From Escherichia phage A73, in the sequence record OP778609: a stretch of DNA of 64,000 nt; one strand, written 5' to 3'. The notes beneath the pieces were generated by a model. It did not search any database. It was not told the origin of the DNA and worked only from the letters and a program-made list of their open reading frames with translations. The position numbers and the translations under genes were made by a program. Positions 3,193 through 61,396 of the stretch are shown here, one piece after another; positions within the stretch are counted from its first letter, which is position 1; each line of letters opens with the position of its first letter.

Positions 3193-3579
3193 ATGAAACA
3201 AGAAATCATCAATGAAATTATTAGCGGTTACAAAGAAGCCTTTATTTTCGCTGAATCAGCAACAGATCAGCACGGGGAGTATATCGATAACCTTGATCCT
3301 TATGACTTCTCCCAGGATGCAAACGACCGGATCGCCCAGGATGTGACAGCCTTTATCAATGCTAATGTTGCCGCTATCTCTGAAGCGATGAGCGACGGCG
3401 CTACAGCCAACCAGATCGGGAATGATTTACATTTTACCCGTAACGGTCACGGTGTAGGCTTTTGGGATCGCCCTGAAATATACACCACTAACACGGCTAA
3501 CCGTTTGAGCAATGCCGCTAAATTAATGCCTAACGTGTCAGCTTACATTGGGAAAGATAATCTGATTTATATTGAATAA
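3193..3579 (+). CDS. hypothetical protein (128 aa)
   Basis: ATG after AAAGAG; acidic protein. Confidence 0.55.
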   Translation: MKQEIINEIISGYKEAFIFAESATDQHGEYIDNLDPYDFSQDANDRIAQDVTAFINANVAAISEAMSDGATANQIGNDLHFTRNGHGVGFWDRPEIYTTNTANRLSNAAKLMPNVSAYIGKDNLIYIE

Positions 3580-4558: not shown

Positions 4559-4607
4559 TTATCACGTAGGGCGGCAATAGTGCCGCTCACTGACTGGAGC
4601 TATCATT

Positions 4608-5009
4608 ATGGCCTTTACAATCACCTCTTACACTGACGTTGCCAACATTGCTAAAACTTTCGGCCCTGAAGCCCTTAAGTATGCGGTATCCAATGGTAAA
4701 CTAACGAAAGAGCAATGTTACCTGATTGGAAGCTGTAAACGTTGGGCGGCATCTCGTAACATCGAGATTGAAAACGTAAATGATGGTAACATCGAGTATA
4801 GCGTTGATGCAGTATTCAAGGCCGTGTATTTGGGCGGTATCTACAATACCAATCTTAATGATGTTCGTATCGTTCGCACTGGTTTTGGGGCTTATGATGT
4901 TCCAGTCCGCGAAGCTATGGAAAAAGGTTATATTAATCCAGCTATTTTAAGTATGATCATGACTGAGGCCAAAGAACGTAACGAAGTACGGGCCATCCTG
5001 GGCCTGTAA
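4608..5009 (+). CDS. hypothetical protein (133 aa)
   Basis: ATG after TGGAG RBS. Confidence 0.55.
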   Translation: MAFTITSYTDVANIAKTFGPEALKYAVSNGKLTKEQCYLIGSCKRWAASRNIEIENVNDGNIEYSVDAVFKAVYLGGIYNTNLNDVRIVRTGFGAYDVPVREAMEKGYINPAILSMIMTEAKERNEVRAILGL

Positions 5010-5040: not shown

Positions 5041-5068
5041 TCGTCAATATGCTAATATTTATCACGTA
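5041..5068 (+). promoter_or_regulatory. sigma70-like promoter (TTGACA-16-TAATAT) with conserved leader hairpin
   Basis: -35 at 5041-5046; leader ACGTAGGGCGGCAATATCGCCGC at 5075-5096. Confidence 0.5.
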
Positions 5069-5113
5069 GGGCGGCAATATCGCCGCTCACCCCTTAAAAG
5101 AGCGAGATCTAAA

Positions 5114-5596: not shown

Positions 5597-5853
5597 GTAT
5601 TGCAATGTTAATCAATACCGTAGAAGAGGCGAAAGCATTAAAGTTACGTGTTGAACTGATTGATCAACCAGGTGGAGATCTCCTTGTACAAATCTATCCC
5701 CCAAAGGATGATTCTGGCGCTTATGATTGGTGCTACTCTGACACGTTCGAACAAGTAGACATTAAAGCAATAACATCATTTATCAACAGGGCTATACTTG
5801 AGCAAACGATAGAACTTAACGGGATGTTAAAAACACCCTGGCACATTTACTGA
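5593..5853 (+). CDS. hypothetical protein (86 aa), MSIAM N-terminus
   Basis: ATG overlapping the upstream stop; AGGGGG RBS. Confidence 0.5.
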   Translation: MSIAMLINTVEEAKALKLRVELIDQPGGDLLVQIYPPKDDSGAYDWCYSDTFEQVDIKAITSFINRAILEQTIELNGMLKTPWHIY

Positions 5854-5863
5854 GTTCGACAAA

Positions 5864-5891
5864 AGGGCTTGACTTGTTCAGCCCTTTTTTG
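5864..5891 (+). terminator. rho-independent terminator
   Basis: Stem AGGGCT/AGCCCT followed by TTTTTT. Confidence 0.6.
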
Positions 5892-6029
5892 CTATTCTTA
5901 TCAAACGGGCGGCACCTGGGAACAGGGGGAGGTAATCACTGGACGACTCCGCTATACAGTGATAGTAAATAGCTATCAATAATCTCCAAAAATAAAATAA
6001 AACCTATCGAGTCTTTACAATTCTTTCTG

Positions 6030-6058
6030 TTGACACAACAACCGCATTACAGTATTAT
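6030..6058 (+). promoter_or_regulatory. sigma70-like promoter (TTGACA-17-TATTAT)
   Basis: -35 at 6030-6035, -10 at 6053-6058, then CTCGTAGGGC leader motif. Confidence 0.55.
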
Positions 6059-6061
6059 TTA

Positions 6062-6330
6062 TCTCGTAGGGCAGCGAAGCAGTGATGTAAAGTAGTTACT
6101 CTATGATGTAAGTTCTGAGAAGTCGAATCCGATAAAGTATCAGAAAGTTTCTAAGTTTTCGAATCGTCCAGATGAAAAAGGCTGGCAAGTGTTGAGAAAG
6201 GGCACGTTGAGTAAGTCCTGAACAGGGGCGCTCCTAGACACCTTCTACTGAGATTGCGATCGAAGTGTTAAACTGTGAGAAACAAAAGAGCGCTAGGAAA
6301 GAAAGAAACAAGAAAAGAAGTTAAAAAGAT
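6062..6330 (+). ncRNA. candidate untranslated transcript / sRNA
   Basis: About 270 nt downstream of a strong promoter with no ORF longer than 7 codons; the next promoter (6333) serves the gene at 6407. Confidence 0.2.
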
Positions 6331-6332
6331 TG

Positions 6333-6362
6333 TTGACACAAAAGTAAGTTGTATACTATTAT
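6333..6362 (+). promoter_or_regulatory. sigma70-like promoter (TTGACA-18-TATTAT)
   Basis: -35 at 6333-6338; CTCGTAGGGC leader follows. Confidence 0.45.
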
Positions 6363-6406
6363 ATCTCTCGTAGGGCAAACATTCAAAACATCAAAAAGGG
6401 TACAAA

Positions 6407-6682
6407 ATGTTACAACTTAACGCTAAATTAGACAAAGAAATCACTGAATTTTGGGATATGGTAGTAGCTACTGATGTGGACGGTGTAGCAAGTCCTTACC
6501 TCAATAACATCGAGTATCACAATGTTGCCGCTATCAATGCAGAACACAAAGAGAAAGGCGGTGCTGATAAATTTGCTAAAAGCAATGGCTTCACTGATGC
6601 TAATCACATGATGCAATCAGTATTGTGGCAAGCTCAAGAAGATTTCGAAGAAAAAACTCTTGAATTTGCCAGACGCTCATAA
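6407..6682 (+). CDS. hypothetical protein (91 aa)
   Basis: ATG after AAAGGG; followed by hairpin GGGCCGAAAGGCCC at 6697-6710. Confidence 0.55.
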   Translation: MLQLNAKLDKEITEFWDMVVATDVDGVASPYLNNIEYHNVAAINAEHKEKGGADKFAKSNGFTDANHMMQSVLWQAQEDFEEKTLEFARRS

Positions 6683-7629: not shown

Positions 7630-7680
7630 GTACCTTGTAGGGCAAGCAATAACGCAAGCCCATAAATAGGACAAACTATC

Positions 7681-7878: not shown

Positions 7879-8494
7879 TCAACCAGGGGCCGCAATAGTG
7901 GCCCTTGTCATATCCATCGGCGTGACTCTCCCAACTCTATTAATCCCTTCCCCATTTGGATCATCATAACTTACCTCATCTAATCATTAATCTAATCCCC
8001 TTTGGAATCTCTCCCCCACAAATCTAAACTAATCTGATAGCTTACCATAACATAATCCACAAAGAAAGAACTATTTTGCCCACAATGAAAGGCAGTTTTA
8101 AAGAGATACCATTGCCAGAGTATGGAGGTGGCGCGACCGTAGGGAGCGACACTATAAAACGAGTATACCCCTCCTACCGCTATGCGGTCATCGGTGATAA
8201 CCGATATCGTTACACGCTATCTGTTCTCTTCGTTTCCTCGTTTTATAGTGTCTATATGTAGTAATCTTTTATTCTTTGTCAATACATTATCGAAGATAAT
8301 ATTGAATTATTTAATGCTTTGTTATTCATATAAAGTGAATAGCTAGTCAATAGGAAGGCCGTTAGTGTGACCACACAAAGAGGCTATGCACCACAAAGAG
8401 AGGCCGTACTTGCCCACAAAAGGAGCAAACAAGCAAGGCGGTACGCCAGTTTGCTAATGAGCGTAGCTCTTTTGCTAGACAAAACTCTCTTCTC

Positions 8495-8653
8495 TCTTCT
8501 TTCCCAAAATAAATTTTTTCTTGCTTTTATTGCCAGAGTATGGCGGGGGGAATGTTGAAAAAATAGATCTTGACTGGTCAACATACGATACATCCTATCT
8601 TCTTTCCCAAAATAAATTTTTTCTTGCTTTTATTGCCAGAGTATGGCGGGGGC
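8495..8653. repeat. two copies of a ~55-bp direct repeat
   Basis: TCTTCTTTCCCAAAATAAATTTTTTCTTGCTTTTATTGCCAGAGTATGGCGGGGG at 8495-8550 and again at 8598-8653; partial third copy of TTGCCAGAGTATGG near 8113. Confidence 0.85.
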
Positions 8654-61313: not shown

Positions 61314-61396
61314 GCGCGGGTGTATCTCAACGGTCTTCTAAACCGTCGTTAATCGAGTAATTGGAGTATGAAGGTTCGAGTCCTTCCTCCCGCGCT
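61314..61396 (+). tRNA. atypical tRNA-like element (possible tRNA pseudogene or unusual tRNA)
   Basis: Canonical T-arm GAAGG-TTCGAGT-CCTTC and acceptor-like pairing GCGGGTG/CTCCCGC with one mismatch; hairpin ACGGT-CTTCTAA-ACCGT could be an anticodon arm (TCT), but there is no room for a normal D-arm. Confidence 0.3.

Follow-up and report, generated by a model that had tools for sequence, protein, structure and literature searches.

A structured leader RNA behind an early promoter of Escherichia phage A73, and its relatives in other enterobacterial phages

What purpose is served by a near-consensus early phage promoter that opens onto some 270 nucleotides (nt) without a gene? This question is raised by positions 6062-6330 of a 64,000-nt stretch of DNA from Escherichia phage A73 (sequence record OP778609; the whole stretch is hereafter called the window). 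A73 is a Vequintavirinae myovirus of E. coli, ~145 kb in size, and the locus is 95% identical to that of phage A5-4. A preliminary description, made from the letters alone, had proposed a discrete small RNA of ~270 nt. Our analysis upholds one half of that proposal, in that covarying helices and conservation point to a non-coding, promoter-driven element that functions at the RNA level, and gives up the other half, since the element has no terminator, ends in a poorly conserved tail and lies upstream of genes. Comparison of relatives shows that positions 6065-6267 encode a multi-domain structured non-coding leader RNA, composed of D1, D2, D3 and H4 and transcribed by the host sigma-70 RNA polymerase (RNAP) from a promoter designated P1. 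The leader represents an apparently undescribed RNA family, and we tentatively read its function as one exerted in cis on early transcription. The transcription unit is framed by the following features:

5861-5891 (approx.), + strand: intrinsic terminator of the upstream cassette, AAGGGCU, 10-nt loop, AGCCCUU and U run, read from the sequence
6030-6058, + strand: sigma-70 promoter P1, TTGACA-17-TATTAT, 11/12 consensus positions in the promoter scan
6333-6362, + strand: second promoter, P2, TTGACA-18-TATTAT, 11/12 consensus positions, directly serving the downstream gene
6407-6682, + strand: first downstream gene, 91 amino acids (aa), from the list of open reading frames (ORFs), without a Pfam match

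Both promoters lie where the preliminary description had placed them, and its remark that P1 departs from the tight spacing of the neighbouring cassettes was confirmed: the promoter-to-ATG distance is 349 nt for P1 (6030) versus 41-56 nt for the neighbours P4530, P5031, P6333, P7071 and P7601. From the position of P1, transcription is predicted to start at ~6065-6066. Because the terminator at 5861-5891 precedes P1, the leader opens a new transcription unit; this terminator, which we call strong, was absent from the output of a simple scan because its loop exceeds 8 nt, and it gave a weak terminator-like Rfam match to STnc320. At the other end, the terminator scan found no intrinsic terminator on the + strand between 6062 and the gene at 6407, which is co-transcribed with the leader from P1.

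The region has no credible coding capacity. On the + strand, 6062-6332 contains 20 stop codons over the three frames, and the longest ATG-started ORF is 7 codons (ATGAAAAAGGCTGGCAAGTGTTGA), as had been reported; with any start codon, the longest closed ORF reaches 19 codons. The micro-ORF MKKAGKC (6173-6196) was rejected, as it has no Shine-Dalgarno sequence and lacks conservation, phage Era103 reading AUG AAA UAG there, with a stop at codon 3. Larger frames exist, namely a GTG-started ORF of 32 aa on the + strand (6275-6373), which leaves the region across the second promoter, and ORFs of 25-36 aa on the - strand, under which the tail has indels between relatives. These are not credible, since they cross the second promoter or the indel-rich tail and are annotated in some relatives only: the - strand ORFs are labelled "hypothetical protein" in A5-4, A7_1 and UPEC06 and are unannotated in LTH01. 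The corresponding annotations across leader and tail (A5-4 3386-3529; A7_1 1538-1630 and 1676-1813; UPEC06 1676-1819, in coordinates of the retrieved sequences) are probably spurious. No tRNA or tmRNA lies within the region. The purine-rich character and short internal repeats noted earlier are likewise real, with 62.8% purine and 14.9% C in this stretch versus 47.2% and 22.6% over the whole + strand, two copies each of TCGAATC and GTTGAG, and recurrent AAGT(A).

The RNA anatomy within this stretch can be described as follows:

6065-6105, + strand: D1, 5'-terminal hairpin; minimum free energy (MFE) fold identical to the comparative model
6113-6145, + strand: D2 hairpin; MFE fold in agreement with the comparative model
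~6160-6246, + strand: D3, junction domain with helices P2, P3 and P4, from comparison
6168-6185, + strand: D3 helix P2, CCAG-AUGAAAAAGG-CUGG; 100% paired, 3/4 pairs compensatory
6189-6205, + strand: D3 helix P3, 3-bp stem, GUG-UUGAGAAAGGG-CAC; 100% paired, 3/3 pairs compensatory
6209-6233, + strand: P4, a lineage-specific insertion with covarying pairs, common to the window, Rtp and Seurat types
6229-6236, + strand: boxA-like octamer CGCUCCUA, read from the sequence; lambda boxA CGCUCUUA with U6C
6241-6246, + strand: invariant CCUUCU, 3' strand of the D3 closing helix P1, from aligned relatives
6246-6267, + strand: H4 hairpin, UACU-GA-GAU[UGCG]AUC-GA-AGUG, judged by eye and RNAfold
6268-6332, + strand: purine-rich tail GGAAAGAAAGAAACAAGAAAAGAAG, without a terminator; 82-97% identity, indels, up to 8 unaligned bases

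D1 consists of an outer stem (CGUAGGG/CUCUAUG), a proximal stem (AGC/GUU), an internal loop with GAA opposite AAAGUA, an inner stem (GCA/UGU) and the GNRA tetraloop GUGA. D2 has the outer stem UUCUGA/UCAGAA, the same internal loop, the inner stem GUCG/CGAU and an invariant AAUC loop, and so fits the family plan [stem]GAA[4 bp]AAUC[4 bp]nAAGUA[stem]. The two hairpins share the invariant GAA//nAAGUA internal loop. Across the family the D1 core is an invariant GAA-GCA-GNRA-UGY-nAAGUA, with a compensatory GUG-GCGA-CAC in F4M1D, and its outer stem differs from lineage to lineage (CGUAGGG/CUCUAUG in the window, CUCACC/GGUGAG in Era103, CAAGAC/GUCUUG in MR4, and others). In D3, the first and last bases of the P2 loop switch between A..G and G..A among relatives, and the P3 stem (AGG/CCU, CGG/CCG, ACG/CGU, CGA/UCG, GGG/CCU, GGC/GCC or GUG/CAC) closes an 11-nt loop, UUGAGnAAGGG, that hardly varies. 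In the window, Rtp and Seurat types the P3 unit is duplicated, with P4 within the second copy; P4 is built of GAG/CUC outer pairs, a 5-bp stem GUCCU/GGGGC (6215-6219/6225-6229) and a GAAnA pentaloop (6220-6224), which reads GAACA, GAAAA or GAAUA and varies at position 4 only. Its pairs change between G-C and C-G, C-G and U-A, and U.G and C-G. The invariant CCUUCU pairs in relatives with AAGGA, AAGGUA or GAAGGUG and, in the MFE fold of the window, with the P3 loop instead; helix P1 covaries from A-U to U-A between the Klebsiella/Erwinia phages and the Nifs112/Seurat types. At the position of H4, relatives have other hairpins (CUAG/CUAG, CCGA/UCGG, CUCA/UGAG, CAUA/UAUG), again judged by eye and RNAfold.

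Folding and covariation analysis across homologs, the check that had been suggested for the candidate, supports this model. RNAfold reproduced the comparative structures from the window D1 alone and D2 alone. For D2, 95% of cells were paired over 10 lineages and 10/10 pairs were compensatory, giving a covariation score of 1.10 versus 0.31±0.06 for shuffles (0/500 reached the score) and at most 0.24 for slid controls. In D1, 94% of cells were paired over 15 family members and 5/6 pairs showed compensatory changes; with the alignment fitted to the model, D3 helices P2 and P3 were 100% paired in 18 distinct sequences, with 6/7 pairs compensatory. Pairing reached 93% for helices P2 and P4 and the GAG/CUC extension of the window-type core, in which three pairs covary. 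It is the + strand that folds, because the U.G pairs would be A.C on the other. A covariance model trained on nine Autographiviridae D3 cores only, designated R1, found 6148-6216 as its sole significant match in the 64 kb of the window (29.4 bits, E~1e-4) and also matched the Rtp and Seurat cores. The D2 model, R2, recovered the Seuratvirus and NC29 copies outside its training set, and its weaker matches to D1 hairpins show that D1 and D2 are alike. Moreover, 6062-6255 is the best-conserved segment of the locus, at 97.9-100% identity to four relatives, compared with 81-100% for the promoter, 82-97% for the tail and 89.5-98.9% for the flanking genes; in LTH01 and UPEC06 the promoter spacer has been largely replaced and the RNA differs at 4/194 positions.

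Homologues of the leader were found in at least seven unrelated enterobacterial phage groups: Vequintavirinae, Rtp-like Drexlerviridae, Seuratvirus, Grimontviridae (7-11), Kuravirus, Klebsiella/Erwinia Autographiviridae and microvirus NC29. The distant blastn searches covered 50,697 phage records, were iterated from the first matches, and revealed two sub-modules common to unrelated phages. Positions 6159-6246 match, at 85-92% identity, leader DNA without annotation in Seuratvirus (SA80RD, SLUR75, WildeMaa/Bas23) and in Rtp-like Drexlerviridae (Rtp, ZL19, PH1062, BUCT-XGG-1), and 6073-6152 are ~76% identical to the Grimontviridae Salmonella phages SE131 and pSal-SNUABM-01. Iteration added Erwinia, Pantoea and Klebsiella Autographiviridae (Era103, Nifs112, KL01, F4M1D, K1-ULIP33 and others), the Kuravirus members XT32, SU7, MN03, Bas86 and Bas89, phage 7-11 of the Grimontviridae, and NC29. 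The element is kept down to 72-76% identity. Within lineages its spread is sporadic, with 4-5 Vequintavirinae, ~5 Drexlerviridae, 3 Seuratvirus and 1 microvirus; the whole locus of the window is specific to a five-phage clade, so that presence/absence polymorphism is uninformative. The family is a horizontally mobile "promoter + leader" cassette found in many virulent enterobacterial phages.

The microviral copy lies in the C-D intergenic region of NC29, a single-stranded DNA (ssDNA) phage of 6,259 nt, at 2477-2703 of the record and behind TTGACG-17-TATATT. It comprises D1, D2 and a Kuravirus-type D3, is 78.6% identical to Kuravirus MN03 and was the only microvirus match in the phage records searched; the cassette appears to have been acquired horizontally, by transfer between double-stranded DNA (dsDNA) and ssDNA phages.

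Neither 5,426 E. coli genomes nor 72,556 plasmids gave a blastn match, and a host origin or host mimic was rejected on that basis. Rfam 15 at the gathering threshold returned tRNAs only from the window; at E<=10 the best match to 5850-6450 was a Drosophila snoRNA (20.9 bits against a gathering score of 101), and the loci of nine relatives gave no match at E<=1. A C/D-box snoRNA match (E 0.24) was rejected, as it came from UGAUG/CUGA strings that are not conserved in relatives. Scans of sequence collections yielded few true matches, with one Verrucomicrobia and ~20 metagenome matches attributed to chance. Searches of the literature by sequence strings and by topic returned no description of such a leader family.

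The genomic context of the family is uniform. In all lineages the leader lies directly downstream of a host-type promoter, except in Rtp, where the sigma-70 scan calls none, and it begins ~0-3 nt from the predicted transcript start, as seen for D1 in the window, 7-11, Era103 and NC29. It is always in the sense orientation and upstream of protein genes that are unrelated between lineages, with no terminator-like site in between; because these genes differ by lineage, the leader is not a gene-specific regulator. A stand-alone feature with its own Rho-independent terminator or discrete 3' end was found neither on the + strand of 6062-6407 nor in the Rtp or NC29 leaders. Since no terminator follows and the conserved RNA ends at ~6267-6285, the element looks like the 5' leader of the downstream operon and is probably not a free-standing small RNA; a free leader fragment might still arise by processing. 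This pattern argues for a general role in cis on the transcript or the polymerase, and against both the regulation of particular genes and a conventional small RNA acting in trans.

Two observations on individual members may be added here. In Rtp (~60-80 and 300-320), PH1062, ZL19 and BUCT-XGG-1 the motif AATAGCACTTTTTG(C/T)TAAA stands on both sides of the leader, and a -10-like hexamer lies 22 nt downstream of either copy; as the scan calls neither, tandem promoters are not claimed for Rtp, just a repeated AATAGCACTTTTTGYTAA motif that flanks the leader. In Salmonella phage SE131, the ~1.1 kb following the D1-D2 leader (1140-2245) has no annotated gene; it could be an untranslated early leader of great length or hold small genes that were missed in annotation.

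What, then, would such a leader do? The reading that we favour, with somewhat less than even confidence and from sequence comparison, is that it acts in cis to make early transcription by host RNAP processive, by antitermination or an anti-Rho effect exerted through RNAP or Nus factors, and that it also protects the 5' end. The leader would act on its own transcript and on the polymerase making it. The hairpin at the first bases of the transcript would shield the 5' end from decay, and the invariant loops (the two GAA//AAGUA loops, AAUC, UUGAGnAAGGG and CCUUCU) would bind a conserved component of the host elongation machinery, either RNAP itself or Nus factors. In the clade of the window, the boxB-like hairpin and the boxA-like CGCUCCUA may contribute to binding. 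Polymerases started at P1 would thereby withstand termination, whether intrinsic or Rho-dependent, and transcribe deep into the early operon, and the C-poor, purine-rich composition may keep Rho off the long untranslated leader. A bolder version is rather doubtful: that the cassette of promoter and RNA is self-sufficient, its transcript alone reprogramming host RNAP or its Nus/Rho partners with no phage protein, and that it constitutes a new class of RNA antiterminator unrelated to put, nut and EAR. If true, an ssDNA microvirus would share one RNA antiterminator with dsDNA phages from six families.

The possible link to antitermination comes partly from P4 and the octamer that follows it. In lambda, boxB is GCCCU-GAAAA-AGGGC and boxA is CGCUCUUA (PMC2724277). 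A pyrimidine transition at boxA position 6, such as the U6C of the window, has been argued to be tolerated, with G2, C5 and Y6 critical (Stagno et al., PMC3177189). The octamer is an exact CGCUCUUA in UPEC06 and CGCUCCAA in SA80RD; those of Rtp (AACUCCCA) and SLUR75 (GCCUCCAA) are without G2. All Autographiviridae members carry a canonical boxA, GCUCUUUAACAA, 25-160 nt after D3 (a 1-mismatch variant in Era103), which in F4M1D includes an upstream CAC (CACUGCUCUUUAACAA). In the window itself, the 12-nt canonical rrn-type boxA, (U/C)GCUCUUUAACAA, has no match with up to 1 mismatch, and 2-mismatch matches occur at chance level; a copy of AAAGAGCG in the tail, the reverse complement of boxA, was dropped because it is not conserved in A5-4 or LTH01. 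Function of the boxA- and boxB-like sequences, like the mechanism of the leader as a whole, is inferred. In three Klebsiella-type Autographiviridae contigs an exact boxA (GCTCTTTAACAA) occurs three times in the early region, at intervals of ~350-700 nt, and there the D1-D3 scaffold precedes the first boxA only.

The only family member with experimental data is phage 7-11. The only two validated sigma-70 early promoters of this phage give rise to leftward polycistronic transcripts over almost half of the genome, and an undefined antitermination strategy was considered "highly likely" by the authors (PMC8948821). In the 7-11 record, promoters at 101-129 and 196-222 lie directly upstream of the D1-D2 leader and appear to be promoters 151-3 and 151-2 of that study. 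The leader is a concrete candidate for the unexplained antitermination of 7-11 and, should the bolder version hold, would explain it.

Several observations weigh against this reading. The downstream cassettes of the window have a promoter apiece, which leaves no obvious need for read-through, and most of the context data would be just as compatible with a simple role in stability or with one in trans. The critical G2 of the octamer is lost in the Rtp and SLUR75/WildeMaa types, leaving it intact in some clades only, and no boxA can be recognised in Kuravirus, Grimontviridae, NC29 and Rtp-type members. The extra Autographiviridae boxA copies have no adjoining D-type domains, which implies that boxA needs no scaffold. 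On the structural side, the alignments of D1 and D2 were cut manually to a common length, and fold stability is not higher than that of shuffled sequence (z of +0.94 for the whole region and +1.31 for D3), so that the structural case rests on covariation. Given that the octamer is degenerate in Rtp and SLUR75 and that other lineages have no boxA, the scaffold of D1, D2, P2 and P3 must have a function of its own.

Alternatively, the leader could act on the fate of the message, with the polymerase unaffected. It would then be an mRNA stabiliser or processing element only, in which D1 and the structure behind it guard against 5'-end-dependent decay by RNase E/RppH and the loops are sites for host RNA-binding proteins or RNases that set the half-life. 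The position of D1 at the predicted start in the four phages named above agrees with this, as does the constant location in cis, upstream of genes. A 5'-terminal stem-loop stabilises E. coli mRNA, and T4 gene 32 offers a precedent in its stabilising-type leader (cited in PMC8948821). One stable 5' hairpin would suffice for this purpose, however, leaving unexplained ~200 nt with several invariant loops in seven lineages as well as the association with boxA or boxA-like sequences, and we regard the explanation as unlikely. About as hard to credit, and judged quite unlikely, is a decoy or aptamer acting in trans, perhaps cut from the mRNA, that binds and inactivates a conserved protein of the host (a defence factor, Rho, Hfq or an RNase) and is made on DNA entry without translation. 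It would account for the sporadic spread within lineages, the transfer of promoter and RNA in the manner of accessory or anti-defence genes, the invariant loops, the mutually unrelated downstream genes and the acquisition by a tiny microvirus, but terminators and defined 3' ends are lacking in all members, the constant orientation and position relative to genes would not be required of a trans-acting gene, and no complementarity target or host homologue was found. A CsrA sponge was rejected, since the window has CCAG for the GGA of the Rtp/Seurat P2 stem and most members read AAGGG in the P3 loop; an RfaH ops or sigma-dependent pause element in D1 was rejected because the motifs are not conserved between members.

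Three further explanations are improbable to differing degrees. The D3 three-way junction, with its covarying stems, invariant joining and loop nucleotides, and alternative pairings of CCUUCU with P1 or the P3 loop, might be a riboswitch-like sensor in which binding of a small molecule changes the read-through or folding of the leader. Such a role is improbable, as there is no expression platform, neither a terminator nor a reachable ribosome-binding site (a promoter and 160 nt intervene before the ATG), the downstream genes are unrelated across members, and Rfam gave no aptamer match. Still less probable is a non-functional remnant, that is, an emptied gene cassette or a recombination scar that has recently spread horizontally. 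The early region is indeed built of promoter-gene-hairpin cassettes and overall thermodynamic stability is unremarkable, but compensatory changes in more than 20 base pairs, together with the status of best-conserved segment of the locus and retention at 72-76% identity and in a 6-kb microvirus, speak against decay; covariation has already largely refuted this reading. Finally, the purine-rich, promoter-driven, non-coding transcript and its polypurine tail (6296-6330) might form a lasting RNA:DNA hybrid and serve as a replication primer or R-loop RNA, as at the ColE1 or T4 origins. We give this very little credence: the tail is the least conserved part, the family spans unrelated replication systems, including a microvirus and T7-like phages with replication origins elsewhere, and the GC skew has no turning point here.

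The cis-acting antitermination reading would matter because virulent phages that rely on host RNAP must carry long early transcripts past Rho and terminators, and few solutions are known to us, namely N and Q of lambda, put of HK022 and Psu of P4. If confirmed as such, a leader RNA that is conserved, needs no protein and recurs behind early promoters would be a new and widespread solution; if the leader is not an antiterminator, it would be a new RNA-based device for host takeover or anti-defence. The family also flags spurious "hypothetical protein" calls in GenBank records, and promoter plus leader would make a compact, portable part for synthetic biology if long-range expression is boosted.

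Other features of the window deserve mention. The initial transcribed motif of P1, ATCTCGTAGGGCA, is common to four other early promoters; in the form A(T/C)C(T/A)CGTAGGGC(A/G) it occurs at 4561-4573, 5061-5073, 6061-6073, 6365-6377 and 7632-7644, 5 matches against 0.96 expected, and the copy at 6061-6073 supplies the 5' strand for the outer stem of D1. The early protein encoded at 4608-5009 (133 aa) has a weak Pfam match to PF16805, phage late-transcription coactivator, which at 16.6 bits (E 0.007) stays below the cut-off of 25. Two direct repeats of 58 nt (8492-8549 and 8595-8652; CT(C/A)TCTTCTTTCCCAAAATAAATTTTTTCTTGCTTTTATTGCCAGAGTATGGCGGGGG), 98% identical and 103 nt apart, sit with a third, partial upstream copy (8111-8134) in ~1.8 kb without a long ORF (~7.9-9.7 kb). 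They have no Rfam match, form no tandem array and may be repeated regulatory sites or another non-coding unit. In the tRNA cluster, Rfam detects at 61316-61394 a sixth tRNA (35.8 bits) that ARAGORN did not report.

How does the leader compare with known systems? The closest functional parallel is the put RNA of HK022, a structured, cis-acting RNA just downstream of early sigma-70 promoters that needs no phage protein and acts on the transcribing polymerase (PMC9378689). Put binds the zinc-binding domain of the RNAP beta' subunit and suppresses both pausing and termination. The leader family resembles putL and putR in its place just behind an early sigma-70 promoter, in cis to a long operon, and in its apparent independence of protein. 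The architectures differ: put is ~70 nt, with two long stem-loops and a triplex, whereas the leader is ~200 nt, with two short internal-loop hairpins, a junction and one more hairpin. When the phage records were searched with the window element and its relatives by distant blastn, a search that involved no direct alignment to put, neither HK022 nor any other lambdoid record was matched.

With lambda nut, the window shares a 5-bp hairpin with a GAAnA pentaloop, as in boxB with its GNRA-like GAAAA or GAAGA; the CGCUCCUA that follows is a candidate boxA. The order in nut is boxA, spacer, boxB, and the system includes a phage N protein with an arginine-rich motif, whereas here the hairpin precedes the boxA-like octamer, and none of the eight neighbouring ORFs has a Pfam match to an N-like protein or antiterminator. 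The order of hairpin and then boxA is that of the rrn leaders: P4 ends at 6229, the first base of the octamer, and in E. coli rrnB, whose leader carries a canonical boxA after the boxB hairpin, boxB ends 2 nt before boxA. The Autographiviridae relatives are closer still, with a canonical rrn-type boxA. Nevertheless, neither nut nor the rrn leaders have a counterpart of D1, D2, P2 and P3, and model R1 has no match to rrnB.

The T7 early leader (A1-A3, boxA, R0.3) offers tandem strong host-type promoters and an untranslated leader with a canonical boxA before the first early gene, 0.3, and Molineuxvirinae relatives of T7 have the full D1-D3 scaffold at the equivalent place, but T7 itself is matched by neither R1 nor R2. 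At ~225-285 of T7, between A2 and A3, AUCG-CUAG-GUAACA-CUAG...GUGCCUUCUAGG resembles P2 and the CCUUCU strand of D3 by eye only. At the level of motif, GAA opposite AGUA in D1 and D2 recalls the sarcin-ricin/loop-E (S-turn) fold, with the difference that the long strand has gained two bases (nA). The GAA and AGUA bases are invariant in 10/10 D2 and 15 D1 sequences, except for the D1 of Bas89 (AAA), and from this sequence signature alone the internal loops are putative S-turn motifs. At the level of the cassette, the PeSL of T4-like phages, reportedly described by Arbiol et al. in 2010, is a mobile module of early promoter and stem-loop that flanks small accessory genes. PeSL has a simple stem-loop, whereas the leader family is a complex RNA with invariant loops, distributed across phage families and realms.

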